Shown: piece by piece, positions 2,517 to 63,685 of the stretch
Layout of the letters: each line of letters begins with the position of its first letter
Position numbering within the stretch: position 1 is the first letter of the stretch
From: an uncultured Candidatus Saccharibacteria bacterium
Lineage (GTDB): Bacteria; Patescibacteriota; Minisyncoccia; Phycocordibacterales; XYD1-FULL-46-19
Length of the DNA stretch: 64,000 nucleotides
Reading direction: 5' to 3'
Assembly: GCA_964639285.1 (NCBI GenBank)
Contig: CAZXCI010000003.1
Location: 31,187-95,186, forward strand
Made by a program: the position numbers and the translations under genes
Notes under the pieces: generated by a model
The model's input: the letters and a program-made list of their open reading frames with translations, nothing else
What the model was told of the DNA's origin: nothing
The model's database searches: none

Positions 2517-3401
2517 ATGCCCGAATTACCCGAAGTAGAAACTTTAAAACGCGAATTGTCCCGCGTTGTTGTTGGTTTGAAAATAAAAAACTGCAAAGTC
2601 CTTTGGGCTAAAACGGTAAGCCCCCTCTCTCCTAAAAAATTCGCCAAACAAACTAAGAATAAGAAAATTGTCGGGGTAAGGCGAAGGGCTAAAATGCTTT
2701 TTCTCGATCTCGAAGGTAGTCAGGCTCTGGCGGTACATCTCAAAATGACGGGGCAACTTATTTTTCTCCCCCCAAGGACAGTCCTTAGGGGCAGTTCAAG
2801 GGCTGTCCTCGGGGGTCACCCAGATGACCAAATGCTCGAGAAACAGCCTTCTAAATATACTAGACTAATTTTTGAATTTACCGATAAGTCCAAGCTCTAC
2901 TTCAACGACCTGCGCAAATTTGGTTGGATAAAGCTTGTAACAGATAAAGAAATGAGTAAGCTGACAGAAAAGGTCGGCCCTGAACCACTCTCCCCCATCT
3001 TCACACCAAACCTTCTCATTGAGATATTTAAGAAATATAAAAATAGAACAATCAAGCAAATTCTCTTAGACCAAAGTCTAATTGCCGGTATTGGTAATAT
3101 CTATGCTGATGAAGCCTGCTTCTTGTCCAAGCTAAGGCCAGATAGAAAAACCCAAACGTTGAAACCAGCCCAAATAAAAAATCTGAGAGAAAATATTATA
3201 AAAGTTCTCAAACTCTCAATTCAGAAAAAAGGTACCTCGTCGCGCAATTATCGCCGGAGCGACGGCTCACGGGGCGGCTTCGTCCCCCACCTAAATGTCT
3301 ATGGTCGAGAAAGTGAACATTGCAAAGTTTGTCACCGGACCATCCAAAAAATCCGCCATATTGGACGAGGGACCCACTTCTGTCCCCATTGCCAGAAGTA
3401 A
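2517..3401 (+). CDS. mutM: Formamidopyrimidine-DNA glycosylase (Fpg/MutM)
   Basis: N-terminal MPELPEVET catalytic Pro2/Glu3 signature, H2TH region, C-terminal zinc finger CxxC...CPHCQ. Confidence 0.85.
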   Translation: MPELPEVETLKRELSRVVVGLKIKNCKVLWAKTVSPLSPKKFAKQTKNKKIVGVRRRAKMLFLDLEGSQALAVHLKMTGQLIFLPPRTVLRGSSRAVLGGHPDDQMLEKQPSKYTRLIFEFTDKSKLYFNDLRKFGWIKLVTDKEMSKLTEKVGPEPLSPIFTPNLLIEIFKKYKNRTIKQILLDQSLIAGIGNIYADEACFLSKLRPDRKTQTLKPAQIKNLRENIIKVLKLSIQKKGTSSRNYRRSDGSRGGFVPHLNVYGRESEHCKVCHRTIQKIRHIGRGTHFCPHCQK

Positions 3402-7741: not shown

Positions 7742-10195
7742 TCACGCCATTTTCTCAAGCCCGCCCCAACAAGAGCCAATAGCTGAAGAAACCTCAATTG
7801 GAACTGATACCGACACCACCTTCTCCATGGCTTTCTTAATAATCGGTAGAGCCTCTCCGACCACCCCCTCTTTAAGTTCAAAAATTAATTCATCATGTAT
7901 CTGAAGCAAGAGAAAAACTCTGTCGGACAAACCAGCCTCCCGAAGACCTTGGTCGGCCCTAATCATAGCAAGCTTAATAATATCAGCTGCCGTTCCTTGA
8001 AGTGGGGCATTCATCGCCATCCGCTCAGCCCCGGCCTTAATCTGTGGCAAAGATGAGCGAAGGGCTGGTAAATAGCGGCGGCGACCAAACAGAGTCTCGG
8101 TATAACCCCGTTCTCTAGCCTCGACAATAACTGAATCAAAATATTTTTTGATCGTTGGGAAAGAAGCAAAATAATTATCCATGAAGGCCTGAGCCTCATC
8201 TCGTGTTGTGCCCAAATTTGTCTTAAGCGCATTGACCCCCATACCATAAATAATGCCAAAATTAATAACCTTGGCCCTTCGCCTCATCTCTTTAGTCACT
8301 TCGTCCTCGCCAACACCGAAGACTCGGGCTGCTACCGAAGCGTGAATATCTTTCCCCTCTCGGAAAATCTTAACCAAGTCAGGATCCTCCGACAATACAG
8401 CCAAGACTCGTAACTCAATTTGCGAATAATCAAGAGATAAGAGCTCGTAGCCGGGGCGAGAGATAAAGGCATTCCTAACAACCGCCCCCTGCTCACCTCG
8501 AGTTGGGATATTCTGAATATTTGGGTTCGTCGAGGACATGCGCCCGGTAGTTGTCCCCGCCTGATTTAGAGTTGGGTGCAAAATATCGCCCTTATCTAAG
8601 AGATCCGGAATATTGTCAATATAAGTCGAAAGCAATTTCTGCAACTCACGATAGGCCAAGATCTCTTCGATAATTGGGTGAACGTCCTTCAGTTTCATTA
8701 GTTCTGATTCACGAGTGGATTGGCTCCCGCCGGCAGTCTTCTTCAGCCCCTTAATTGATAGATTCAATTTGGTAAATAGAATCTCGCCAAGCTGTTTGGG
8801 CGAATTAATGTTGAACTCACTACCAGCAAGGACATGAATCTTCTTTTCTAGTCCTGATAATTTGCTGTGGTAATCCTGAGAAAGTTTCTCCAACAACTTC
8901 TTGTCAACTTTAATCCCTCGCTCTCTCGCTCTATCTAATATTGATATAAGGGGTAACTCAATTTCTTGGTAAACTTTTGTTAAACCAAGCTTCTCGAGAT
9001 CAGCAATAATTTTTTCTCTAGCTTTAACCAAGTTATCGGTCCCGGCTTCGGTAGGCAAGCCGACGTAATTGAAGATATCTTCGGGCTTAGGATTGGTTAA
9101 GTCAGAATTGATGAGCCAGAGGGCAAGGGCGAGTTTTTTGATTTCTGTTTCTTCTGGCTCGGTGCGAAAAACGACTTGGCTACGCGAAGTCGCATTTCTC
9201 ACCTCGCCAGATGTGACTTCTTGCCCAGAAGGTCCGTCCTTAAGTGTGCCCAAGGTCGGACCTTGATTGGGGCCCGTTTCTTTCAATTTCTTCAATCTCC
9301 CAATTAAAGTTCGAAAATCTAGCTCGATAAATAATTCTTCAGCCAATTTAGTGTCAAAAGTTTCTACCCAAGTTTCTTTCGATAATTTGAAGTCAATCTT
9401 AGCGTCACGCCGGATCATCGCTAAAGTTTTAGAAAAAACGGCTTCTTCTTCACTCGCCTTCAAAATCTCAACAATTCTCGGTTTAATCCCCTTCTCTGAA
9501 AAAGATTCCTCGTTTTTCTTAATTTTTTTATAAAGGTCTTCAATTGTCCCAAATTCTTGAATCAGGGTCGTCGCCGTCTTCTCCCCTACACCTTCAACAC
9601 CAATAATATTATCAGATGGATCTCCACGCAAACCCTTATAATCAGTTAAGAATTTGGGCTCAAAACCATAACGCTCTTTTACCAATTTCTCATCATAAAT
9701 AACCGTATCGTTCAAACCCTTCTTCAAGGTAAAGACGACCACGCGATCATTATCAACCAACTGGAGAGTATCCATATCGCCAGAGGCAATAATTATCTGT
9801 GCCTCTTTCTCCTTCTTCAATTTCTCGACAATCGTCCCAATAATATCGTCCGCCTCAAAACCAGGTTGATCATAAATGGGGATATGGAAAGAAGTAAAAA
9901 TGTCTCGCGAGCGAATAATCTGTGAGATTAGCCCCGGCTCTGCCTTTGGTCGCTTGGCTTTATAATCATCATAGATCTGTTTGCGAAAAGTTGGTTCGGC
10001 TCGATCATAACAGGCAAAGATATAATCAGGTTTAAGATCGGTGATAATACGCATCATCATCGAAGCCAGCCCATAGAGACCCCCAGTTGGTTCCCCTTTG
10101 CTCGACGAGAAATCTGGTAAAGCGTGATAAGCTCGATGCAAGATCGCATGAGCGTCAATCAAAACTATTTTTGTCTTATAAGTTTTCTTAGCCAT
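7742..10195 (-). CDS. polA: DNA polymerase I (5'-3' exonuclease plus polymerase domains; 817 aa, 3'-5' exonuclease region reduced)
   Basis: N-terminal 5'-3' exo motifs (IVLIDAHAILHRAYHAL), polymerase motif A/B/C region (RRRAKVINFGIIYGMG, QIHDELIFE). Confidence 0.9.
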   Translation of the reverse strand: MAKKTYKTKIVLIDAHAILHRAYHALPDFSSSKGEPTGGLYGLASMMMRIITDLKPDYIFACYDRAEPTFRKQIYDDYKAKRPKAEPGLISQIIRSRDIFTSFHIPIYDQPGFEADDIIGTIVEKLKKEKEAQIIIASGDMDTLQLVDNDRVVVFTLKKGLNDTVIYDEKLVKERYGFEPKFLTDYKGLRGDPSDNIIGVEGVGEKTATTLIQEFGTIEDLYKKIKKNEESFSEKGIKPRIVEILKASEEEAVFSKTLAMIRRDAKIDFKLSKETWVETFDTKLAEELFIELDFRTLIGRLKKLKETGPNQGPTLGTLKDGPSGQEVTSGEVRNATSRSQVVFRTEPEETEIKKLALALWLINSDLTNPKPEDIFNYVGLPTEAGTDNLVKAREKIIADLEKLGLTKVYQEIELPLISILDRARERGIKVDKKLLEKLSQDYHSKLSGLEKKIHVLAGSEFNINSPKQLGEILFTKLNLSIKGLKKTAGGSQSTRESELMKLKDVHPIIEEILAYRELQKLLSTYIDNIPDLLDKGDILHPTLNQAGTTTGRMSSTNPNIQNIPTRGEQGAVVRNAFISRPGYELLSLDYSQIELRVLAVLSEDPDLVKIFREGKDIHASVAARVFGVGEDEVTKEMRRRAKVINFGIIYGMGVNALKTNLGTTRDEAQAFMDNYFASFPTIKKYFDSVIVEARERGYTETLFGRRRYLPALRSSLPQIKAGAERMAMNAPLQGTAADIIKLAMIRADQGLREAGLSDRVFLLLQIHDELIFELKEGVVGEALPIIKKAMEKVVSVSVPIEVSSAIGSCWGGLEKMA

Positions 10196-13326: not shown

Positions 13327-13514
13327 CAATCAAGGGTACAAATCTCTAAACAATCTCTTTCGTAATGCAACTAAAGTTAGGAAAATTATCCAGGAGAGTT
13401 CCCGTCTGATCCACTGCGAGGGTGGGGACCGGAACATCCTATCAAAAAGACCCGTTAGGTCAATAAATTGACCTAGATTGTTTAGAGATTTGTAGGCTTG
13501 ATTGTCTGAGTTCT
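13327..13514. repeat. Intergenic element bounded by 29-bp near-perfect inverted repeats (CAATCAAGGGTACAAATCTCTAAACAATC / GATTGTTTAGAGATTTGTAGGCTTGATTG) enclosing a 130-bp core with an internal palindrome (TAGGTCAATAAATTGACCTA)
   Basis: 27 of 29 nt complementary between arms at 13327-13355 and 13486-13514; sits between pilB and ruvB. Confidence 0.6.
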
Positions 13515-30193: not shown

Positions 30194-32713
30194 TTAGAAA
30201 GCTGCTCCTCCTTGACGAGGATCGTTTAGGTATTGATAAGCGTTCTCGATGGTTCGGTCTGTCGGGTGAGGACCTGCACCACGATGGTGTTCGATCGCAG
30301 TTCTGATCGCTTGCCTCTCTGTATGTGGAACACCCATAGTTAAGGCACTTCGCAACTGTTCATTTGTTAGATAGGGGTATATGTCAGCATAAGCACCATT
30401 AAAGAGGTCGGTATTGGTGGCAAATTCGACAAATTCTGGCCCTGCAAGATTTCTTAGGGCATTTATTCTATTTATCTCATTAGGATTAGCAGCTGCCCAT
30501 GCTGGATTAAAGGAAGACATTGGGTGGGCAAGGGGCGTTCTCCCTGGGGTTCCAATATTTAATTCGGCCGTTGCCTGTTCTGTTCTGTTGACTCGACCCC
30601 TTTCTCTTGCCACTTCGCCCCTCGCTGTGGCTGTCGTCCTGGCATTTCTTTCAAAGGCCCCTCTTGCTGTTGCAACGTTAGCTCCTAGTGCCGATGGTAT
30701 TGGTGGTGCGCCGGCTACTCCTGGTGTGGGAGGAGCCATCCTGTTGACAAAAGCTTCAAGGTCCGCCTTTTCTCTGGCATTTAATCCTTCATAGAGATTA
30801 TTGAGCTGAGGTCCATCTAGGGAATTGAGATGGGCTAGTCTTTCGGCATCATTCCCTGGGTCGATTCCTCTCCAAGAGGCGGCGGATGTTTCTCTTGCTG
30901 CTCGTCCGCTTCCACTGGCTAGGAGTCTATTGGCCTCATTTCCTCGCCCTTGAGTTCTTAATTGCTGGACGACAGTGGCCTTGTCCTCTGGTGATAAGCT
31001 ACGGAAATAGGCATCTCTATCATCAGTTGACCTCAAACGTGACATATAAGAGGCTCTTTGGGCCCCAGCTTGTGGACCAGTGAAACCTGCGGCCCTCTGT
31101 TGTTGAGCTCTCTGTCTTTCTTCCACTCTTGTTCTGTAACCACGAGTGCCTGTGCCAAAGCCAGAGTTACCAATAGAACCAAGCGCTCGTCGGGCCCCCA
31201 TTGCTACTCGTCCAGTGATTGGTCTTGCCGACGAGGCCCAGGCCTGCATTCTCTGGCTCGTTGCTAGCCGGTTAGCAAGGTTACCGACGGTGTAACCTCC
31301 GGCTATACCGAGGGCTCCAAAACCGAGTCTCCTGCCCCAACTTCGGGCAGCCCCGGCTCCAGCGGCACCAAGGCTGTTTGCAATTAAGATACAGCCAAAG
31401 AGAAGGCCAACAATCATGAAATTCATAAAGACAAGGATCATTGGCCCCATAGACCCTAAACTGTTGGCGTCCTTGCCCAGTAGTCCTCCGATTCCATCCT
31501 TTAAGAAAATGAAAACTACATAAAGTGGAACGATTATTCCAGGGGCAACGAAGGCTTGATGAAGAAGTTTCTTAAGCCAGGTGTCAAAGTGATGTCTACC
31601 ATTTGGTATGACGTATAAGACAAAAGCAATGGGTGAAATAACATAGAGAAAAATAAGATAAACAGTTCTAATGAGAAACATAATTGACATAGCTATTAGG
31701 ACAAAACAAGAAACCAGAATAATAATAATGTTCCCGAAAGTTTGAATAATTATACCAGCGATACTTAAGCTCCCGATCACTGGGGCGAGAATAATGACTT
31801 CATTTCCATCAGCATCAGTCGCCTTAACCGGGATTGAAGGACCACCAAGAAACTGTTGGCTTAAATTTAGCTTACTAACTAATTGTCCGCCGATGCCAAG
31901 TTTGTTTCCCCCTGTCGCGATACCACCACCCATCTTGACGTAGAATTCATAAGCAACAACATTGGAGGCATCGATAATGATTCTAGTGAAGAAACCGCTG
32001 AAGTTGACAAGGAGAGCAATAATTATAACATTGACGATTAATTTCTTGGGATCACCTATTCCTTGGAGTTCAAAAATTGTCCCGATGGCGATATAGAGTA
32101 AGATGAAAACAAAACAGAGATTCCCGATGTCACGCAATACTGTCCAAGCGTTATCGATGCCGGAGTTTATTAACCAATCCTTTACGCTTAGGATAGAGAC
32201 TTTTATCGAGATATCTAGAATAGTTCCTGCGGCGACTAAGAGACTACCAAAGACCCAAGTTAAAGCATCGCCGATGGCGGCGAGGACTCCCCGGACACAC
32301 CCTCCGATATTTAAGGGGCTACAAGAATCATCTTGGTTTGCTTCAAGGTATTGTCTAGCTGATTCTTCGTCAACAAATTTTCCTCTAAATTCTCCAAATC
32401 CTCCTCCTGATATGAGAGCAGCTTCTCGCATGGCAGCTAAACCCTCTTTTTGGCTTTTCCCTACAGACAGATCGGGGAACCAGGTAAAACCGTAATTATG
32501 AAGGGTTGAAGAGACTCCTGATACAGGGTTCAGTATCATCGCCCCATAATGTAGCCCCATGTCCCAGAAATTACCAACCACTGATGTTATCGGTGCACTA
32601 TAACCTCCACCGATAGGAACGTTCTGGCTTAGGCTTATCAGGGGGAAGACTATTGCTAAGAGCAATACCCCTGAGATAAGAATATTTATTTTTAATTTCT
32701 TTCTTAAGCTCAT
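30194..32713 (-). CDS. VirB6/TrbL-like polytopic membrane protein (839 aa) with a long Ala/Arg/Gly-rich hydrophilic C-terminal tail
   Basis: N-terminal signal/TM, extracytoplasmic segment, at least 6 closely spaced TM helices in the middle third, then a roughly 380-aa low-complexity tail; architecture typical of TrbL/VirB6. Confidence 0.5.
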   Translation of the reverse strand: MSLRKKLKINILISGVLLLAIVFPLISLSQNVPIGGGYSAPITSVVGNFWDMGLHYGAMILNPVSGVSSTLHNYGFTWFPDLSVGKSQKEGLAAMREAALISGGGFGEFRGKFVDEESARQYLEANQDDSCSPLNIGGCVRGVLAAIGDALTWVFGSLLVAAGTILDISIKVSILSVKDWLINSGIDNAWTVLRDIGNLCFVFILLYIAIGTIFELQGIGDPKKLIVNVIIIALLVNFSGFFTRIIIDASNVVAYEFYVKMGGGIATGGNKLGIGGQLVSKLNLSQQFLGGPSIPVKATDADGNEVIILAPVIGSLSIAGIIIQTFGNIIIILVSCFVLIAMSIMFLIRTVYLIFLYVISPIAFVLYVIPNGRHHFDTWLKKLLHQAFVAPGIIVPLYVVFIFLKDGIGGLLGKDANSLGSMGPMILVFMNFMIVGLLFGCILIANSLGAAGAGAARSWGRRLGFGALGIAGGYTVGNLANRLATSQRMQAWASSARPITGRVAMGARRALGSIGNSGFGTGTRGYRTRVEERQRAQQQRAAGFTGPQAGAQRASYMSRLRSTDDRDAYFRSLSPEDKATVVQQLRTQGRGNEANRLLASGSGRAARETSAASWRGIDPGNDAERLAHLNSLDGPQLNNLYEGLNAREKADLEAFVNRMAPPTPGVAGAPPIPSALGANVATARGAFERNARTTATARGEVARERGRVNRTEQATAELNIGTPGRTPLAHPMSSFNPAWAAANPNEINRINALRNLAGPEFVEFATNTDLFNGAYADIYPYLTNEQLRSALTMGVPHTERQAIRTAIEHHRGAGPHPTDRTIENAYQYLNDPRQGGAAF

Positions 32714-35700
32714 ATACTCATTGTCTTCTGGGTTGTCCCTTTGTCATTGGTGCAATCTAATTTATATTCTCTGGCGGTGGTGGAAGCGGTGACAAGGAGG
32801 TTTGCTCGCTTGGTGAGACTATCCCCTTTTTTCTTAATGATCTCTTCGCCGTTGGCCCAATCATTTCCGGCTTTGCAGTCGGTGGCATTGGGTGAAGCCC
32901 AGTAGAGAAGATATTGGCCGTCTCCCTTATCTTTATCAGCAAAGTAGACGAGAGGCTTAATATTCTTATAAGCGTTGGCTAGGAATTCTATGAGTAATTC
33001 TAGTAGATTGAGACTGTCAGATGACGGAGAGTCTGATTCCCCGATTACTAAGTCGAGTAAACCGGTGAAATTTGACCATTCGGTGCCTCCTTCACCCCCA
33101 TCAGTGCCATCACCATCATCGCCTTCACCAGTTCCTCCCTCGGTTCCCCATTCGCTCGTATCGGGAGTATAAGTGCTAGCTTGTTCAATTTGGTCAGGAA
33201 TCCCGTCAGGGCCGACCATGCCCGGGCCAGGGGCCCCACCCCCGTCAGTCGTGGGGGTGAAGTTGTAGAGCTCACTCACGTTCGGCTCATTGCCCACGTT
33301 GATATCACCCATATCTTTGGCTGTCTCATATTGCGTTAGCCTGGTTCCCATTCCTTGAGCAGCTGTTTCTTTGACGATACTAGCAGGAGTTTGGGTTTCC
33401 CACATAATACATGTTTTGATTGAAGAATCTTCTGGGTCAGTAATCCATTTATTGCATTTTCGGACCGGAAGGAATCCTTGGCCAGCGATCATCTCATCTC
33501 GGACATTTGCTTCGGCTAAGGCCTGACTTCTTTTTAGTTGATCATTGGCGATTAGATAGCTACCATAACGGTTGTTTTGCGGTTGGAACATTTTGAGTAG
33601 GGCTGTCCAATATTCTGCGTCTGTGTAATCCTCAGAATCTGAGGCTTCTTCTTCCGCATAACTAGTTTTTATCCCAAAGAGGGAAGACAGTTTGTCTATC
33701 GGATTAGCCAAATAGCCTAAGAAAGGGATGTTTCTCAGTGTGGCAAGAATCGAAGTATTTTTTTCTTGAGCAACTATTTCTTCCGACTGATCACTGGCCT
33801 TGAACCCATTTTCTTCGGCGGAGCTGATTATTTTTATCTCTTTCTCTGTAAGCGTTGGCTGGAAAGGACGGCCAACTGAATCTATCTGCAAGGCATCGGC
33901 GATCTCATCTTTGTACATGTTCTTTGAGTTTCTAATGCGATCAAGGACAATTCTTTTTGCTTCATCTCTTGCCTGAGCGATTAAGACTCCTTCGTTGACG
34001 ACATAGAGAGGAGCACTATTCCCGTTGGAGTCTTGATATCCCTTTTTAATAAGCCCTTCTTCTCCCAACAGCGCCCCCTTATACTGTTCAATCACTGTTG
34101 AGGCGGCTCGTCTTACGGCGGCATCCTCAACCATTTTTTCTTCAAATCTCTGTTGGATACGTTTAACGGCGCGGATATGGGTACAAATTTGAACATTTAA
34201 CTCTCTTATCTCTCTTGTTCTTCTCTCGATACTATTGGTTAGACTCATTAGTTGGCCGTTTTGCTCGACAACCGGGACATAGAGACCACCGGTGACAGTG
34301 TCTGTCACGGTATCGACGACCGTGTCGACAACTCCCCCCTCGTCGAGGATCCCTTCTAGTCCGGGAATGCTGTTTATAATATCGCTAACACCTGGTAATT
34401 CGTCTAAGGCACCAGAGAAGTCATCGATAAGACCATCGACAGATAGTCCGTTGACCATATCACCCAATAAATCTTCTGGTAGGTCAGAGAGGACACTGTC
34501 AACAATTTCGGGGAGGCCGTTGTTTAGAATATTGCCCAAAGCCCCTTCGCCCAAGAGGGAGAAGACGGTCTCACTCACGTCTCCGTCTAAGAAACTCAGG
34601 ACTTGATTGAGCTGGCCACCACCCAACTGGCTGAAGATGTCATTGAGAGAACTCATGTTGAGATTGCCAAGGATAGAGTTAAGGTTACCTTCACTCAAGT
34701 TACCGAAGATGCCGTTGATGGCCCCATCTCCGAGTCGTCCGATAATTCTATCAAGACTCCCTGATGAGATGTTGTCTATGACGTCGTCAAAATCTTCTAG
34801 ATTATAAGTATTGTTGATGAAGTTATTTAGAGAAGTATCGTTCAGGTCATTGAGCAAACTTGTCAGTTGAGAGGAAGAGAATTGAGTGAGGATGGTCTCG
34901 TTTGACTCGTAAGATAGCCGTCCAATAATACCACCAAGATTACTAGAGGGGAGTTCATCAATAACTTCACTTAGATTACTAATGTTTAAGTTTTCGAGAA
35001 CATGATTGAGGCTATCATAAGGGAGTTTGGTGATAATATCTCGAATATTTATTGTGCTCTCTGTTGGAGAGGAGAGTATCCGATTGAATGAGTCATTAAT
35101 TTGCGATTCGTCGAGAGCCAAAAGTATTTCTGATAAATCGGTGGGGGTGGCCTTATCTAAGTCAACCGGTGTTGTCCCAAGGAGAACAGTCCTTACGGGG
35201 TCGGTCTTCTCAGCATGCACAAGGTTATGAAGAGATAAGTTGTCAGAAAGGAAGTTATCAATATAAGTAATTAGTTTGTCCAAAGGCGAATCAATGAGGG
35301 CTGTTTTTCCCCCGCCGACAGTTCCGCTGAGTTTTGCGTGCCAATGATCACCATATTTTGCACCTTTTTCTCGAGTGAAGACGTCTCCGTTATCGAGATA
35401 ATGTGTTTTAAACTTGGTTTTTTTAGATATTGTGGTGCTTACTGTGTGTTTTTCAATATACTCATTGAGTTTTGCGTTGTCGGGACTATAGTCTACGACG
35501 TTAGCACCGGGTTTATGTTCAACATGCCCAGCCTCTGTTCCAGAAGTTATCACTAGGCCACCTCCTATTTCCCTATTTATCTCGGCGGATCGGTCGATTG
35601 AATGTTGGGGTAATCCGCCGACACTGGTACAGCCACCTTTGACCGTGCGGAAGTCTCTTCCTGCACAATCAGCTTTGTTCACGGTTATTCCTTCCGCCGC

Positions 35701-36276
35701 AAGTTTGTCTCTTGTTTCTTGTTCGCCTCCCGCTGGCTCTCCGTAACCGTTCGCTCCTTCTCCGCCTTGCTCGTCTGAGTCAGGATTCTGAACGGGGTCG
35801 CTATCGCTGGGTTGGCCTTGGTCTCCTGCCCCATCCCCTTCCCCAGTTGTGCCATCTCCTGTTCCGCTCCCCGTCCCGGTCGTGCCAGAACTTCCACCGC
35901 TATAACCGCCAGCCTCAGCTTCACAACGGATCTCGTCTTCTTTTTGGAGTTTGGCCAACTCTTCGGCTTCTTTGTCTGTAGTTTTCTTATCTTTCCCTAC
36001 TCTTTCTTCTAGGGAGTCTTCTCCGCTATTGCCACTGGCGCCATTACTGCCACTATCTCCACCGTCGCCTCCACTGTTGATGATGATGTCGGCGACGTCA
36101 TTTATATCAATGTCGCCAACGCTATCACTTCCTCCACCACTGGGGAAACCCGTATCAGGGACAGGAAGGTTAGATATCTGAGCCCCAGTATTTTGGGCGA
36201 TTAAGAAAATAACTAAGGCTGAGAAAATGACCAGAGTTAGTTTCTTGAATATATTTTGTGAGGTTCTCGTGGTCAT
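32710..36276 (-). CDS. Giant secreted/surface protein (about 1190 aa) with acidic Gly/Asp/Ser-rich N- and C-terminal regions and a central array of degenerate Leu/Asn/Ser-rich repeats
   Basis: Signal peptide after the internal Met (MTTRTSQNIFKKLTLVIFSALVIFLIAQNTGAQ); the ORF opens at 36321. Repeats of the form S/N-L-N-x-x-L-x-x-L-x-(I/L)-x-x (LNHVLENLNISNLSEVIDEL, LGGIIGRLSYESNETIL, LDRIIGRLGDGAINGIFGNLSEGNLNSILGNLNMSSLNDIFSQLGGGQLNQVLSFL). 4-nt overlap with the VirB6-like gene. Confidence 0.6.
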   Translation of the reverse strand: MTTRTSQNIFKKLTLVIFSALVIFLIAQNTGAQISNLPVPDTGFPSGGGSDSVGDIDINDVADIIINSGGDGGDSGSNGASGNSGEDSLEERVGKDKKTTDKEAEELAKLQKEDEIRCEAEAGGYSGGSSGTTGTGSGTGDGTTGEGDGAGDQGQPSDSDPVQNPDSDEQGGEGANGYGEPAGGEQETRDKLAAEGITVNKADCAGRDFRTVKGGCTSVGGLPQHSIDRSAEINREIGGGLVITSGTEAGHVEHKPGANVVDYSPDNAKLNEYIEKHTVSTTISKKTKFKTHYLDNGDVFTREKGAKYGDHWHAKLSGTVGGGKTALIDSPLDKLITYIDNFLSDNLSLHNLVHAEKTDPVRTVLLGTTPVDLDKATPTDLSEILLALDESQINDSFNRILSSPTESTINIRDIITKLPYDSLNHVLENLNISNLSEVIDELPSSNLGGIIGRLSYESNETILTQFSSSQLTSLLNDLNDTSLNNFINNTYNLEDFDDVIDNISSGSLDRIIGRLGDGAINGIFGNLSEGNLNSILGNLNMSSLNDIFSQLGGGQLNQVLSFLDGDVSETVFSLLGEGALGNILNNGLPEIVDSVLSDLPEDLLGDMVNGLSVDGLIDDFSGALDELPGVSDIINSIPGLEGILDEGGVVDTVVDTVTDTVTGGLYVPVVEQNGQLMSLTNSIERRTREIRELNVQICTHIRAVKRIQQRFEEKMVEDAAVRRAASTVIEQYKGALLGEEGLIKKGYQDSNGNSAPLYVVNEGVLIAQARDEAKRIVLDRIRNSKNMYKDEIADALQIDSVGRPFQPTLTEKEIKIISSAEENGFKASDQSEEIVAQEKNTSILATLRNIPFLGYLANPIDKLSSLFGIKTSYAEEEASDSEDYTDAEYWTALLKMFQPQNNRYGSYLIANDQLKRSQALAEANVRDEMIAGQGFLPVRKCNKWITDPEDSSIKTCIMWETQTPASIVKETAAQGMGTRLTQYETAKDMGDINVGNEPNVSELYNFTPTTDGGGAPGPGMVGPDGIPDQIEQASTYTPDTSEWGTEGGTGEGDDGDGTDGGEGGTEWSNFTGLLDLVIGESDSPSSDSLNLLELLIEFLANAYKNIKPLVYFADKDKGDGQYLLYWASPNATDCKAGNDWANGEEIIKKKGDSLTKRANLLVTASTTAREYKLDCTNDKGTTQKTMSI

Positions 36277-36280
36277 GTTA

Positions 36281-36973
36281 TTAATTACTGACAAAAATCT
36301 GGATTTTTTCGTTATCAGCAAAAGTTACCTTATTTAAAACAAAGAATTGGTTTAGCGTTTCGATAGATTTGATGAAGTCTGAATAATCATGGTTGAAGGT
36401 CTGGCTATTTTCCAGAGCGAGAGTCGGCTGAGACAAGGCTTGTTCCATATTCTTAAGACGACTGACAAGCAGATTTATTTGACTGACGATTTTGAAATGG
36501 CGGCTGGCCAATTCCTTGGGAACGGGAATTTTTGTCAGACTTAGAGCTACCTGCTCGTGGAGAATCCTAGAGAAGGTTACTGATTTGATGAACGAACCGT
36601 CATTTTTATCAATGGCCGACAGCACGGCCCTGGCCTCACTCTCTCTCCTCCCGCTTAGGGGTTTGAAGGTCTCGGCCAGACGAAGTCCGTAGGTTCGGAA
36701 GTCTTGCGGACTGCTTACTCCAGTAGTCGAACTAGCGATGATCGGTTTCTCGGCCAATTGACTGATCGAGACATTTGTTTTATTGGAGGAGAGTTCCTGT
36801 CGAGAGAGGTCCTCGAGGTTCTTATGTTTTTCTAAAATGTCGCTTAGATAAGCTTGTCGTTTTTTTTCTTCTCTGGATTTTTTTTGATGGCCGACAAACC
36901 ATAAAGAGACAATGGTAAGTACCACTAAAACAATCACTAGCCGTATCACATTTTTGCTTGGTAAATGGGCCAA
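36281..36973 (-). CDS. Membrane-anchored hypothetical protein (230 aa), first gene of the T4SS-like operon
   Basis: N-terminal TM (LVIVLVVLTIVSLWFV), coiled-coil-like remainder. Confidence 0.45.
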   Translation of the reverse strand: MAHLPSKNVIRLVIVLVVLTIVSLWFVGHQKKSREEKKRQAYLSDILEKHKNLEDLSRQELSSNKTNVSISQLAEKPIIASSTTGVSSPQDFRTYGLRLAETFKPLSGRRESEARAVLSAIDKNDGSFIKSVTFSRILHEQVALSLTKIPVPKELASRHFKIVSQINLLVSRLKNMEQALSQPTLALENSQTFNHDYSDFIKSIETLNQFFVLNKVTFADNEKIQIFVSN

Positions 36974-59648: not shown

Positions 59649-59683
59649 AAAACTGAAGGTTTTGGAGGAGGGTGAAAAATCAC

Positions 59684-59754
59684 GGGCTGTAGTATACCGG
59701 TAGTACGTGCCCATGGGGTGGGTATAGACCGAGTTCGATTCTCGGCAGCCCGAC
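59684..59754 (+). tRNA. tRNA-Pro (anticodon GGG), C1:G72
   Basis: Acceptor CGGGCTG/CAGCCCG, anticodon arm TGCCC-ATGGGGT-GGGTA, T-arm CCGAG-TTCGATT-CTCGG. Confidence 0.7.
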
Positions 59755-59928
59755 AAAAGAAAAAGACAGGGGAGTATTTCCTTGTCTTTTTCTTTTGTCG
59801 TGAGAATCGAACGGGAAGGGGTCGGGAAACGGGAGTTTCCCGTGGCGGAATTATTCAAACCGAGGGGTTTGAAAGCGGAGCGAGTGACAATGAAGCGAGC
59901 AGTGAGTGTTCTCGGCAGCCCGACAAAA
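59740..59928 (+). repeat. Exact 20-bp direct repeat TTCTCGGCAGCCCGACAAAA: copy 1 at 59740-59759 is the 3' end of tRNA-Pro(GGG), copy 2 at 59909-59928 is 149 bp downstream; the intervening segment forms a long imperfect palindrome that includes the tRNA terminator
   Basis: Identity seen directly; classic signature of integrase-mediated insertion at a tRNA 3' end (attL/attR-like), here with only a remnant between the repeats. Confidence 0.6.
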
Positions 59929-59974: not shown

Positions 59975-60223
59975 ATGACGACTTTAAATATAAGAATTGA
60001 AAACAAGGCTAAGGCTGATGCGAATAGGGCTCTTGCTCGCATGGGTCTTGACATGTCCAGCGCGGTCAAGCTCTTTCTCTCTCAGGTGGTGAAGGAGGAC
60101 GGCCTTCCTTTCTTGCCAACAAATAATCCGATAGTTATTAAAGCGCGTTTTGATGCACAAGTGGCCGAAGCCAGGAAGAGTCGCGGATTCAGGACGGGCA
60201 AAGGGGCACTGCGTGGTTTATAA
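59975..60223 (+). CDS. dinJ: Type II antitoxin, RelB/DinJ family
   Basis: TLNIRIENKAKADANRALARMGLDMSSAVKLFLSQVVKEDGLPF matches the DinJ/RelB ribbon-helix-helix antitoxin pattern. Confidence 0.7.
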   Translation: MTTLNIRIENKAKADANRALARMGLDMSSAVKLFLSQVVKEDGLPFLPTNNPIVIKARFDAQVAEARKSRGFRTGKGALRGL

Positions 60224-60229
60224 TTTGTC

Positions 60230-60517
60230 ATGCCTTTTCTCATAAAACGAACTAAGGATTTCGAAAAATCTTTCAAAAGAATTAGTCGCTCTGGTTTAAG
60301 TCTGAGAACGAGAGGGAAATTGGAGACGATAATTGATTCTCTTGCTAGTGGCGAGAGACTAGAAAGTAAACACAAAGACCATCGACTAAAAGGGGAGCTT
60401 AATGCTTACCGCGAATGTCACATCATCCCCGACCTTTTGCTTATTTATAAATTGGAGGAAAAAGAAGATGTCTTAATCTTGGTTGATATTGGGAGCCACT
60501 TCCAGTTATTTGGCTAG
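60230..60517 (+). CDS. yafQ: Type II toxin, YafQ/RelE family mRNA interferase
   Basis: ...KDHRLKGELNAYRECHIIPDLLLIYKLEEKEDVLILVDIGSHFQLF matches the YafQ signature (KDHPLTGNWKGYRECHIKPDWLLIYK...RTGSHSELF). Confidence 0.7.
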   Translation: MPFLIKRTKDFEKSFKRISRSGLSLRTRGKLETIIDSLASGERLESKHKDHRLKGELNAYRECHIIPDLLLIYKLEEKEDVLILVDIGSHFQLFG

Positions 60518-60926: not shown

Positions 60927-61141
60927 CTGGCAAGGTCTGAGCTGTGACAGCTCACTAAAGGGTAATTGACTCTCCCAAAATTTTTGGCTAGAGTCAGAAC
61001 AAGAACCTCACCTTCCAGCCCAGTTCCCTGTCTTCCCCAGAACCCCATGCTAGCTAGTATGGGGTTCTTCTTTTGTGTGTAAAACGTTTCATCGCTAGCA
61101 GGGCTCTTGAGAAGAAATTTTTAAATTGGTAATCTGGGGGT

Positions 61142-62032
61142 GTGAAACAAGACTTAGCTTCAAAAATAAAAGCTGATTTGCGCCAAGTGGCCAGCAAAGA
61201 TAAGGCCAAGATTTTGGCGCGCTTCTTCAAAACGGGGAGAGGGGAGTATGGCGAGGGCGATAAGTTCTTGGGCGTGGTGGTGCCAGAGCAGAGGCGGATT
61301 GCGAAGGAATGGCTTAGAGGTTTCACCTCGGCCTGCCCGCAATGCTTTGCAACGCAAGGCAGGCGGGGCTCACTTGAGGAGAAACCTCAAGCCGTGCGAA
61401 GTCTCAATACTCGTTTAGTTGTGAGAAGTCGTTTCTCGCGTAGCCAGATGCGACTTCGCACAACCCTCGATGAGCTTCAAAAACTTTTGCAAAGTCCGTT
61501 TCATGAAGAGCGACTAACAGTACTTCTGATTTTGATTGAGTTGTATAAGAAGGGAGATAAGGAGAATAAGAAACAAATTTTTAATTTTTATATCAATAAT
61601 ATTAAAAACATTAATAATTGGGATCTTGTTGATTTAAGTGCGCCGAATATTGTAGGCGATTATTTATTAAACTTTTATCTAAACGGGAAAGAGGTTAATA
61701 AGTTTTTATTAAAACTAGCGCGGTCAAAAAATCTTTGGTCCCGCCGGGTGGCGGTCTTGGCTACTTTCCCTTTTATAAAAAATAATAAATTTGCCGAAAT
61801 CTTGGCACTTACCAAATTTTTACTTTTTAAACAAAAAGAAAAACATGATCTCATGCACAAGGCCTTGGGTTGGATGCTCCGCGAAGTGGGGAAGCGCGAC
61901 AAAAAAGTTTTAATTAATTTCTTGGATGAGTCTGGGGCGCGACTTCCTCGCGTTACTCTTCGTTATGCGATTGAAAAATTTCCCGAGAAAGAAAGGCGGG
62001 AATATCTGACTCTTCGGTATTGTTCAGAGTAA
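61142..62032 (+). CDS. alkD: DNA alkylation repair protein, AlkD/AlkC-like HEAT-repeat glycosylase family, carrying a roughly 46-aa in-frame insertion
   Basis: N-terminal ...KILARFFKTGRGEYGEGDKFLGVVVPEQRRIAKEW and later ...NNWDLVDLSAPNIVGDYLL...WSRRVAVLATFPFIK parallel AlkD (...MKNHFLFLGIRTPVLRKIAKRIY...VDNWDSVDSFAPHVVGDLL...WVRRAALLALL); GTG start. Confidence 0.6.
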   Translation: MKQDLASKIKADLRQVASKDKAKILARFFKTGRGEYGEGDKFLGVVVPEQRRIAKEWLRGFTSACPQCFATQGRRGSLEEKPQAVRSLNTRLVVRSRFSRSQMRLRTTLDELQKLLQSPFHEERLTVLLILIELYKKGDKENKKQIFNFYINNIKNINNWDLVDLSAPNIVGDYLLNFYLNGKEVNKFLLKLARSKNLWSRRVAVLATFPFIKNNKFAEILALTKFLLFKQKEKHDLMHKALGWMLREVGKRDKKVLINFLDESGARLPRVTLRYAIEKFPEKERREYLTLRYCSE

Positions 62033-62086
62033 AATAAAAAACCTGATCATTTCTAGATCAGGTTTTTTAGATTAAGAATTAAATAA

Positions 62087-62353
62087 TTATTTTTTGCCCC
62101 ACTTCTTTTTATAGACGTAGAAGTAGTAGATGATATCTAAGATCCCAACGGTGTTGACCAGGAGAAGGATGATAAACCAAATCTTGGCACCATTACGAGC
62201 TGCTCGCCACATGGCTAGACCTTTCCACAAAAGGGTCCAGACAATGATCGCGATTAATAAAGTGGTCATGCCAGCAACGCTGGCGATAACCGTACCCCAA
62301 GCGCCAGTGGGCAAAGCACTGAGGCCTTCGGTTGCATTGATAATGTTTTCCAT
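62087..62353 (-). CDS. Small two-TM membrane protein (hypothetical)
   Basis: Two hydrophobic helices, basic C-terminus KKKWGKK. Confidence 0.4.
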   Translation of the reverse strand: MENIINATEGLSALPTGAWGTVIASVAGMTTLLIAIIVWTLLWKGLAMWRAARNGAKIWFIILLLVNTVGILDIIYYFYVYKKKWGKK

Positions 62354-62441
62354 ATATTAACTATTATATCACAATTTTTATTTGTGCTATAATCAAACTG
62401 TTAATAATAATTATTAGTAATCTTTTAATCTATTTTTTGTT

Positions 62442-63443
62442 ATGGAAAAATTAATTGGCGTTGGTGATCTCTTCAAGAATACTTGGAAGATCTATCGGGA
62501 AAAGTTTGCTTTGCTTGTTGGTCTTATGGCCCTACCTTTCTTACTAATGGCTCTCAATCAAGTTCTGATGAGTCTGGGGAAAGGGATAATTATTACGCTT
62601 GGTTCGTTGATTAATATTGTTGTTTCAATCGGCGTGATCTGGGCTTTAGCCGGGATCTTGCTTGTTCTAAGTAATAACCAAGTGTTAACGGTCAAAGAAG
62701 CTTATCGTCTTAGTAGAGGGAAATTGCTTTCGTATCTCTGGGTTTCAATCTTGGCGATGTTTATTGCTGGTGGGGGTTTCATGCTCTTTGTTATACCGGG
62801 AATTATTTTGTCTGTTTGGTTAGCCTTTGCTCAGATTATTTCTGTTGTCGAGGGGGAGAAAGGGCTTCGAGCTATTGTCAAAAGTCGTGAGTATGTTCGT
62901 GATTATTTCTGGCCAATTCTTGGACGTTTCTTGCTCCTGTCTGTAATCTTGTTTGTTGTCTATTTCATTCTGATGGCTATTGCTGGCTTTGTCGCTTCGT
63001 TATTTAGTTCTTTCGGTTCCACGGTCTTTGTTTTAGTTTTGAGTCTTCTTGGCTCTGCTATTAATTTTCTCTTTGTTCCCTTAGGAGTTATCTATGCCTA
63101 TCTTCTTTACGGGAATGTTAAGCAGGTTAAAGGAGAGGTCTTAATTGACCCGGCCAAAAAACAAGGACTTCGTTACCTCTTAGTTGGTCTTGCTGGTTGG
63201 GTTCTTATTGCCGTTGTCAGCATCTTTCTCCTATCACTTCTTGTTAGTCTTTTCGCCGGACTCTTCTTTGGCCAAGCTTTGAGTGGAATGAATTCTGGAG
63301 CGATAAATGAGCTTCCTAGGGTTATTCCCAAGATCCCAACAGAGATGCCTGCTGGGTTGACAGCTGAACAACAGCAACAATTGCAGACGCAATTAGATGC
63401 GATGAAAAAATTACAGGACAAACTTAATATCCCGACCGAGTAA
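62442..63443 (+). CDS. Polytopic membrane protein (6-7 TM) with a Gln-rich C-terminal tail (hypothetical)
   Basis: Multiple long hydrophobic segments; no family recognised. Confidence 0.5.
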   Translation: MEKLIGVGDLFKNTWKIYREKFALLVGLMALPFLLMALNQVLMSLGKGIIITLGSLINIVVSIGVIWALAGILLVLSNNQVLTVKEAYRLSRGKLLSYLWVSILAMFIAGGGFMLFVIPGIILSVWLAFAQIISVVEGEKGLRAIVKSREYVRDYFWPILGRFLLLSVILFVVYFILMAIAGFVASLFSSFGSTVFVLVLSLLGSAINFLFVPLGVIYAYLLYGNVKQVKGEVLIDPAKKQGLRYLLVGLAGWVLIAVVSIFLLSLLVSLFAGLFFGQALSGMNSGAINELPRVIPKIPTEMPAGLTAEQQQQLQTQLDAMKKLQDKLNIPTE

Positions 63444-63685
63444 TGCATTACGGCTTCATCATTATTACTGTGGCCTGGGTCTGGCAATGGTGGAAGATGC
63501 GCTCAGGCCAACGCAGTCTTGATCCTTGGTTTCTCCGTATCTACGCTTTGGGCCTCTTAGTGATCTTACTCGACACCTTCCGTACCGGTGATTGGCTCAC
63601 TTGGGCCAATGTTGCAGCCATGACCATTATCCTCCTGCTTATCTGGCGGATTAAGCGACGGGGGAAGAAAGGTGGGTTGATCTAA
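63443..63685 (+). CDS. Small Trp-rich two/three-TM membrane protein (hypothetical), start overlapping the upstream stop
   Basis: ATG overlaps the TAA of the upstream gene (TAATG); hydrophobic. Confidence 0.4.
   Translation: MHYGFIIITVAWVWQWWKMRSGQRSLDPWFLRIYALGLLVILLDTFRTGDWLTWANVAAMTIILLLIWRIKRRGKKGGLI

Follow-up and report, generated by a model that had tools for sequence, protein, structure and literature searches.

In-frame hairpin modules in an AlkD-family gene and other housekeeping genes of a Paceibacterota lineage: probable counterparts of the translated palindromes of Rickettsia and of yeast mitochondrial GC clusters

Palindromic repeats that lie in frame in housekeeping genes and are translated are known from Rickettsia, whose palindromic elements (RPEs) were described by Ogata et al. 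(2000, 2002; summarized in PMC10969869). Short GC-rich mobile palindromes are also found as the GC clusters of yeast mitochondria, which include in-frame insertions in var1 and merge or are shuffled into new clusters (PMC8811140), and in the mitochondria of Magnusiomyces, inserts derived from GC clusters are skipped by the ribosome (PMC5009743). Here, we analyze an in-frame insertion in an AlkD-family gene carried by a 64,000-nucleotide stretch of contig CAZXCI010000003.1 (hereafter, the window). The initial annotation had taken it for a miniature element that landed in the coding region and preserved its frame, likened to transposable elements of the miniature inverted-repeat type (MITEs), repetitive extragenic palindromes (REPs), and palindrome-associated transposable elements (PATEs). 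Copies elsewhere, the varying states of the AlkD site, and the folding agree with a miniature palindromic, probably mobile element that kept the frame; however, the insertion is composite, lacks the target duplication of MITEs, and is intragenic, unlike REPs. We consider it likely that several mini-palindromes, selfish or neutral and translated, have piled up in this insertion, and that they are comparable to RPEs and yeast GC clusters. On our best reading, these belong to a family of ~41- to 48-nt GC-rich hairpin modules that colonized the protein genes of one lineage of Paceibacterota, within the Candidate Phyla Radiation (CPR; Patescibacteria).

Like the RPEs, the Paceibacterota elements are palindromes set in frame into a wide range of unrelated housekeeping genes in bacteria whose genomes are small, apparently translated and placed at structurally tolerant positions (for RPEs, again according to PMC10969869), and a transposase is known for neither. 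They differ, however, in length, which is ~100 to 150 bp for RPEs, compared to 41 to 48 nt for the cores described below. They also differ in being modular, with a conserved apical loop in interchangeable layered stems, in nesting and inverting, in being flanked by copy-specific inverted complements, and in a conservation far above that of their host genes. Their hosts are CPR/Patescibacteria, a different phylum, and a core of 41 to 44 nt in Paceibacterota carriers falls outside the length and host range of the RPE families. The likeness to GC clusters lies in short GC-rich palindromes of an AT-richer genome that are regarded as mobile and are able to sit in frame, as in var1. In contrast to the Paceibacterota elements, which are bacterial and intragenic, GC clusters are organellar and mostly intergenic, and their AG or TAG terminal repeats are read as target duplications, whereas the Paceibacterota elements have no terminal direct repeats.

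The host gene (positions 61142 to 62032, plus strand) encodes an otherwise intact AlkD-family DNA alkylation repair protein of 296 aa. It is a full-length member of PF08713 (DNA_alkylation; E value of 7.4e-57, 192.9 bits against a cut-off of 21), a HEAT-like repeat domain whose profile aligns to the protein as two stretches with a gap between them. Homologues are mostly from Paceibacterota, the named ones being Candidatus Paceibacterota and other CPR, and range from 232 to 303 aa, with most between 232 and 260 aa. In an alignment of 28 homologues, the extra segment begins after ...PEQRRIAKEW. The spacing between PEQR and HEER is 69 residues in the window's protein versus 23 in L024, the closest relative with an empty site (L numbers denote loci fetched for comparison), which gives a net insertion of 46 codons, or 138 nt, just as initially annotated. 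We place the composite insertion at 61313 to 61465 (plus strand, residues ~58 to 108) on the basis of alignment, GC content, folding, and a structure model; the structured stretch reaches ~61465, beyond the end at 61451 that was first reported. Its description as GC-rich and dense in hairpins is borne out: the GC content is 0.57 to 0.60, compared to 0.24 to 0.29 deeper in the gene and 0.43 over the whole window, and the region from 61300 to 61470 folds strongly as RNA on the plus strand (−80.6 kcal/mol, z = −6.6) and on the minus strand (−77.2 kcal/mol, z = −5.9), energies equalled by none of 200 shuffles on either strand. Folded singly as DNA, the parts of the insertion reach z scores of −4.5 to −5.5.

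On the protein level, a distant match to the AlkD structures of Bacillus cereus (E value of 1e-7) puts the gap between AlkD residues ~52 and 81. The AlphaFold2 model of the window's protein is all-helical (mean predicted local distance difference test score [pLDDT] of 87, predicted TM-score of 0.82), with pLDDT values above 90 outside the insertion. Residues 63 to 99 are modeled as coil with a pLDDT of 52 to 68, flanked by helices 47 to 62 and 100 to 116, and the end of the core peptide (~residues 100 to 107) appears as an N-terminal extension of the following helix. The location in a surface loop that the initial annotation had raised is therefore matched by a low-confidence coil between two helices, and the model predicts that the insertion forms a disordered loop on the surface, where it links two helices within the HEAT-like repeat fold. 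The neighborhood of the gene (61142 to 63685), comprising AlkD, an opposite-strand DUF5652 gene, a UPF0259-like membrane protein, and an open reading frame (ORF) of 72 to 80 aa, is kept in L001, L002, L004, and L025, such that local synteny is undisturbed by the insertion.

The insertion is composite, consisting of at least two family members and a nested third palindrome rather than one 138-nt unit. Its downstream part is a 41-nt core with an apex that we call apex a (61421 to 61461, plus strand; GTGAGAAGTCG-TTTCTCGCGTAGCCAGATG-CGACTTCGCAC, encoding VRSRFSRSQMRLRT), recognized from its copies, covariation, and folding. This core forms an imperfect hairpin in three layers, in which an A·G mismatch is conserved; GTT/AAC flanks lengthen the hairpin to 61418 to 61464. 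The DNA folding energies of its strands are −14.0 and −13.8 kcal/mol, each with a z score of −4.5. The upstream part is a layered hairpin of 83 nt, H1 (61311 to 61393, plus strand; DNA fold of −27 kcal/mol, z = −5.5), delineated by folding and module comparison, whose outer stem GGCTTAGAGGTTTC / GAAACCTCAAGCC encloses a second module, apex b, and the nested palindrome. The apex-b module (61324 to 61379, plus strand; CACCTCGG|GCTCACTTGAGG, with AAGTGAGCCC as the apex on the opposite strand) is split here by a 36-nt piece, as judged from the Paceibacterota locus L021, where the module is present unsplit (CACCTCGGGCTCACTTGAGG). The nested piece (61332 to 61367, plus strand) is a palindrome of 12 codons, CCTGCC-CGCAATGCTTTGCAACGCAA-GGCAGG-CGGG; here, GCCTGCC (61331 to 61337) pairs with GGCAGGC (61358 to 61364). 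No second copy of this nested palindrome was present among the fetched loci, and a BLAST search of H1 against the same loci returned only a short common apex. H1 further contains a perfect mini-hairpin, CTTGAGG-AGAAA-CCTCAAG (61373 to 61391, plus strand), found in the sequence and by folding. The CTTGAGG arm is common to this mini-hairpin and to the apex-b stem, which makes the two pairings alternatives.

Between H1 and the core lies an isolated arm, GTGCGAAGTC (61394 to 61403, plus strand), which pairs with GACTTCGCAC at 61452 to 61461 as a 10-bp inverted repeat. The palindromes listed in the initial annotation are all present, GAGAA/TTCTC included, except that the arms of this repeat are 48 nt apart instead of 44 nt. 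The isolated arm equals the first 10 nt of a core in reverse orientation, and such a core, whole or as a remnant, occupies this site in the nearest relatives (L003, L004, and L023). To judge from these sequences, the arm was probably left behind by an earlier copy.

Comparison of copies shows that the core hairpin is kept by compensatory changes. In an alignment of 23 copies of 41 nt with 8-nt flanks, 84% of the cells pair, compared to 32 to 44% when the partners are slid by 1 to 3 columns; the covariation score of 0.221 (0.107 in shuffles) was reached by 0 of 500 shuffles, and internal pairs of the core switch between C-G and U-A (15:7 and 19:3) with no unpaired cells. The pairing continues outward: positions 1 to 3 on either side form Watson-Crick pairs in 69% of the copies and positions 4 to 6 in 44 to 53%, while control flanks taken from different copies pair at ~28%. 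The palindromic flanks are specific to each copy (e.g., AGCA/TGCT, CACCG/CGGTG, CTGTT/AACAG, and CGGATT/AATCCG) and usually lengthen the hairpin by 3 to 6 bp; in the ComEC orthologues L018 and L027, the flank shows a compensatory T-A/C-G difference. No direct target-site duplication was found in the flanks of 32 copies, the two flanks being mutually reverse-complementary instead. Correction of quasi-palindromes by template switching is a known mutational process, and the palindromic flanks could derive from it, from palindromic targets, or from an inverted duplication at insertion. Apex a (CGCGTAGCC) and apex b each occur with many stems, apex b with at least 8 different ones at 18 non-redundant places that include H1, and an arm-exchanged stem is combined with both apices. 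The family members are therefore best described as conserved apices in interchangeable palindromic layers.

To find copies of the core, we scanned for its two arms with any loop of 12 to 28 nt, a pattern that fixes 22 stem bases and leaves the loop bases free, in one genome per species, in metagenome stretches, and in viral contigs. The genome scan returned 18 places, 17 of them in six metagenome-assembled genomes (MAGs) of Paceibacterota/Vogelbacteria and one in a Mucilaginibacter contig; the metagenome scan returned 22 stretches, and the viral contigs held no match to the arm pattern. After removal of duplicates, and with the Mucilaginibacter copy left out, 32 non-redundant copies of the 41-nt core remained. 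All 32 fall within open frames that are 182 aa or longer and represent ~15 different housekeeping genes. Hosts confirmed by Pfam or PDB matches are the SpoU methylase, ComEC, Dus, RNase HII, UvrC, TsaE, Tgt, GatB, enolase, and a PrmC-like methyltransferase; LeuRS, ComF, and a PfkB kinase were assigned by inspection only. The enolase copy falls within a segment of ~22 residues that all solved enolases lack. Relative to the host gene, 14 cores have the same orientation and 18 the opposite one. Some genes carry several family members at different positions, two to four per gene in UvrC (L016 and L028), Dus (L030), and Tgt (L034), with RGETSGSLEDSPLG, VRSRISGSLEKRLLT, and GRSRTSRSQVRLRT in the UvrC gene of L028, which indicates heavy colonization of certain essential proteins in these organisms. 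In the window itself, neither a repeat search (seed 11) nor a fuzzy search for the arms found a second canonical copy besides that of AlkD. The sole match outside the CPR (L007, positions 2768 to 2812, minus strand, Mucilaginibacter flavus NZ_JAUFPS010000074.1) is a 45-nt palindrome with an extra internal GTGCGAAGTC arm that lies outside long ORFs, and could be due to chance, contamination, or transfer.

The frames in which the copies lie bear on whether they are translated. By manual reading, four of the six frames of the canonical core lack stop codons, as do three of the six in the apex-b type, and the copies occupy those frames only. Since copies occur only in stop-free frames, the core elements appear to be transcribed and translated with the host protein. 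The alternative that the segment is an untranslated intervening sequence, either cut out of the mRNA or passed over by ribosomes as in Magnusiomyces mitochondria, could appeal to that precedent of GC-cluster inserts bypassed in translation and to the very stable mRNA structure (−80.6 kcal/mol). Yet all of the ~18 independent insertion sites are stop-free with the downstream frame kept, where chance would give ~0.6 per site, which by our own estimate puts the probability of all sites lying in open frames at near 1e-4. In addition, the Tgt copy (L034), which sits in a frame that would meet the TAG of the loop, has CAG in its place. Such constraints are not expected on bypassed or spliced inserts, and the Paceibacterota elements obey them, whereas those of Magnusiomyces are bypassed; moreover, no intron, ribozyme, or other RNA family was detected. 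We therefore regard an intervening sequence as very improbable.

We give as little credence to the notion that the segment is a lineage-specific, Arg/Ser-rich protein loop selected for its peptide, with the palindromes incidental. It is true that Arg/Ser-rich peptides recur in many proteins and that the C-terminal part of the insertion is modeled as an extension of a helix. However, the same DNA is used in at least four frames or orientations and yields four unrelated peptides from the core (VRSRFSRSQMRLRT, VRSRIWLREKRLLT, LCEVASGYARNDFSQ, and CAKSHLATRETTSH), it is the DNA sequence that is conserved, synonymous positions included, and the covariation resides in base pairing. We take the elements to be, most likely, passengers of a selfish or neutral kind rather than part of the function of AlkD.

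A role at the level of RNA, which the initial annotation had offered as an alternative in the form of a structural element embedded in the mRNA, is unlikely as well. Both orientations relative to transcription are equally common, and Rfam gave no match: at gathering scores it reported only tRNAs in the window, and at E values of up to 10 it found nothing within the insertion and only chance-level matches elsewhere in 61100 to 61700. Because both strands fold equally well and the orientation relative to transcription is random, the active form would rather be a DNA hairpin, either single-stranded or as a cruciform.

The AlkD site changes its state between relatives by presence, absence, orientation, and type of element. 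A forward core is found in the window, in L001 (41 of 41 nt identical), and in L002 (40 of 41); the AlkD protein of L001 is only 60% identical to that of the window, yet the 41-mer is identical at the same site. In L003 and L004 (the exact reverse complement) and in L045, the core at this site is reversed; the window 41-mer also matches L045 in 41 of 41 positions. The A·G mismatch at stem position 4 flips along, which means that the whole element was inverted and not the loop alone. Other loops or stems occupy the site in L011, L025, and L026, a deleted remnant adjoining a 52-nt perfect hairpin is found in L023, and the site is empty in L024 and many more distant homologues. When the hot-spot columns were left out of the alignment, the resulting neighbor-joining tree contained six pairs of sisters with differing states of the site. 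Relatives that share the segment share its palindrome exactly, and we found no orthologue in which the same segment had an ordinary composition without palindromes.

The AlkD proteins of relatives have five or more further insertion hot spots (alignment A1, L001, L011), none of which is filled in the window. Recurrent peptides at these hot spots are PTSxxLRRV(D/N)SR, TCPVRAKRFYG, (S/A)EVEGFNF, SFDxxR(S/T)G, and NPRKTRPA; of these, at least the TCPVRAKRFYG insert corresponds to a hairpin (CCCCGTGAGAGCGAAGCGATTTTACGGGG).

A second hot spot of the window is located in the linker of DNA polymerase I (PolA; gene at 7742 to 10195, minus strand; linker hot spot at 9162 to 9264). It holds a 41-nt variant core (9162 to 9202, minus strand) that encodes EVRNATSRSQVVFRT and is flanked by CTGGC/GCCAG. 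The variant, which surfaced only through a sliding scan of folding energy, has the outer 5 bp and apex a of the canonical core with the two middle stem arms exchanged, and is identical at 41 of 41 positions in L049, where a near-complete canonical core lies 12 nt upstream. A truncated canonical core adjoins the variant in the window (9203 to 9220, minus strand; the gene strand reads GAAGTCACATCTGGC), with 30 nt missing in comparison with L049. The folding scan also revealed an in-frame hairpin, AAGGTCCGTCCTT-AAGTGTGCCC-AAGGTCGGACCTT (9229 to 9264, minus strand), which encodes part of GPNQGPTLGTLKDGPSG and has an apex resembling apex b; P0130 and P0132 have related peptides, which most PolA relatives lack. 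Among 29 PolA relatives, the linker peptides are patchily present, absent, or replaced. Their linkers carry GEVASGYARNDFS, VRNATSRSQVVFRT, or VGSPTSSEPEVVLH or are empty, in no regular distribution.

The elements turn over rapidly at hot spots such as the AlkD loop and the PolA linker. More generally, the modules are multi-copy, occur in either orientation in many unrelated housekeeping genes, nest, invert layer by layer, and decay by deletion.

In six host genes, orthologous cores are 95 to 100% identical, compared to 60 to 80% for the flanking coding DNA (240 nt to either side), and the 19 to 22 free loop bases are also identical in most orthologous pairs. Such an excess requires recurrent re-insertion into the same sites, gene conversion between copies, or selection on the DNA sequence itself. 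A different view is that the hairpins are functional motifs at the level of DNA (or RNA) under selection, for instance in recombination, replication, DNA uptake, or nucleoid organization. They would then be sites bound or cleaved by a host protein, homogenized by gene conversion, and tolerated in genes because intergenic space is scarce in such tiny genomes. Cores far more similar than their host genes, a structure retained via compensatory changes, and the location of all 32 copies in genes would fit this view, as would the arrangement of highly conserved apical loops on variable stems, which is the layout expected for loop-specific single-strand DNA enzymes. Nevertheless, we deem it unlikely, although less so than the alternatives discussed above: exact-stem copies are few, with five to six in each of the best-sampled MAGs, copies decay by deletion (as in L023 and the PolA remnant of the window), sister species gain, lose, and flip copies without visible consequence, and the site is empty in many close relatives.

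Several observations weigh against our preferred reading of the elements as selfish or neutral translated mini-palindromes. The conservation above host genes is unlike that of vertically inherited neutral "junk"; the 64-kb window holds one canonical core and one variant only; no insertion event was caught between near-identical genomes, and the mobility of the core elements is deduced from the distribution of their sequences. No mobilizing enzyme was identified in 392 kb comprising the window and the fetched loci, where tblastn searches with the TnpA proteins of IS608 and IS200 returned nothing, although these constitute a weak test. The scan pattern, being fixed in its stems, under-samples diverged copies and partly builds in the identity of the stems. 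Finally, the sequences come throughout from metagenome assemblies, where palindromes may give rise to errors, which raises the question of an assembly or binning artifact, for instance a foldback error or fragments joined into a chimera. We consider such an artifact to be practically negligible, since the same element recurs at the same gene positions in independent NCBI MAG, Logan, ENA, and JGI assemblies, in every case in frame in intact, conserved genes.

If the elements are indeed mobile passengers, their spread might proceed by copy-and-paste or by conversion without direct target duplication, acting at palindromes or creating them. The agent could be a loop-recognizing single-strand nuclease or recombinase supplied in trans, or template switching during replication, and selection would then purge insertions that break the frame, bring in a stop codon, or fall outside a tolerant loop. 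It is tempting to speculate further that the elements represent an undescribed, CPR-specific class of ultra-small DNA hairpins, with a ~10-nt apical loop read by a loop-specific single-strand DNA enzyme, that insert without direct duplication, grow outward via palindromic flanks, flip layer-wise, and are homogenized across species. We put this forward as a tentative possibility, and a rather doubtful one. We found no description of such elements in CPR, Patescibacteria, or Parcubacteria in the literature, our coverage of which is incomplete.

Compared with other repeat families, the elements show partial likenesses. REPs are extragenic by definition, carry a GTAG-type 5′ tetranucleotide, and are linked to a gene for a REP-associated tyrosine transposase (RAYT). 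Like REPs and the REP doublets forming hairpins (REPINs), the Paceibacterota elements are repeated, imperfect palindromes in the range of 20 to 40 nt with a hairpin DNA form and asymmetric mismatches, but their location is not extragenic, all 32 copies being inside long ORFs. The weak tblastn test with the TnpA proteins found no Y1 transposase-like match in the window or the fetched loci, which are genome fragments. The small dispersed repeats (SDRs) of Nostoc and other cyanobacteria, which Elhai and colleagues reportedly described in 2008, are said to be 21 to 27 nt long, largely non-coding, and located in heptamer repeats or HIP1, and to have been proposed as the smallest mobile elements. 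SDRs resemble the Paceibacterota elements in being dispersed hairpin repeats of tens of nucleotides with compensatory changes and nested self-insertions; in contrast to these largely non-coding repeats, the Paceibacterota elements are intragenic and apparently translated. Palindromic amphipathic repeat coding elements (PARCELs), too, are palindromic coding repeats in protein genes that are readable on both strands. Reportedly, however, they are longer, tandem intragenic repeats in surface proteins that encode an amphipathic domain, whereas the Paceibacterota elements are single short insertions in housekeeping enzymes.

With MITEs, the elements share terminal inverted repeats (GTGAG... / ...CGCAC) only in the trivial sense that the whole element is an imperfect palindrome, and the direct target-site duplication of MITEs is absent from the 32 copies. 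PATEs, which derive from IS200/IS605, have two different subterminal hairpins, compared to one hairpin here, and the Paceibacterota elements show no conserved left-end target of 4 to 5 nt: the bases of the left flank are TT in ~14 of 33 copies (including L007 from Mucilaginibacter) and are otherwise diverse. MITEs, REPs, and PATEs are therefore to be taken as analogies and not as memberships. What would distinguish the family from known systems, by these comparisons, is its size of 41 to 48 nt, its modularity of apex and stem, its palindromic flanks, its conservation above that of the hosts, and its CPR lineage. Other identities were considered and rejected: an intein would be far longer and have motifs that are missing here, the end motifs of an integron attC site are in the wrong order, the copies are too few for a DNA uptake sequence and are insertions rather than motifs arising by point mutation, and they are not arrayed as in CRISPR or TIGR arrays.

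The window contains further hairpins. The gene for Fpg/MutM (2517 to 3401, plus strand) carries a GC-rich in-frame hairpin of 47 nt at 2769 to 2815, CCCCC-AAGGACAGTCCTT...AAGGGCTGTCCT-CGGGGG (z = −4.25 as DNA), within a segment of ~21 residues that has no counterpart in solved MutM structures; this hairpin probably represents a separate family of palindromes located in genes. In the region from 59683 to 59928, the 3′ end of tRNA-Pro(ggg), TTCTCGGCAGCCCGACAAAA, recurs exactly 170 nt downstream (59739 and 59909), with a 23-bp perfect AT-rich hairpin (59751 to 59800) between the two copies and a RelB-like/toxin-like gene pair following at 59975 to 60517. This region looks like a scar of integration at the tRNA. 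The longest local inverted repeat of the window has arms of 30 nt that are 93% complementary (13327 to 13356 and 13475 to 13504) and separated by 118 nt. A 60-nt stretch with a GC content of 0.77 and strong local folding (33201 to 33260) lies within an ORF of 1,203 aa (32710 to 36321, minus strand), whose product is a large low-complexity protein of secreted type. Overall, the window holds 21 perfect inverted repeats, compared to ~2 in shuffles; terminator-like intergenic hairpins dominate this count, which therefore tells little on in-gene elements.

Coding palindromes had been described as peculiar to Rickettsia. A much smaller, modular counterpart in essential genes of Paceibacterota, such as those for enolase, LeuRS, GatB, PolA, and UvrC, would show that this phenomenon has recurred in another lineage with reduced genomes. 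The copy-specific flanks, the layer-wise inversions, and a conservation that exceeds that of the host genes offer handles on how palindromes move and evolve. Should the elements prove to be a CPR-specific hairpin class, they would rank with the smallest known mobile elements and would steadily supply essential proteins with new loops. For the study of CPR organisms, the inserts have practical consequences: they inflate and distort alignments of proteins as well as phylogenies and predicted structures, they give rise within genes to hairpins that are very stable in mRNA and DNA, and they may be of use as fine-scale lineage markers.

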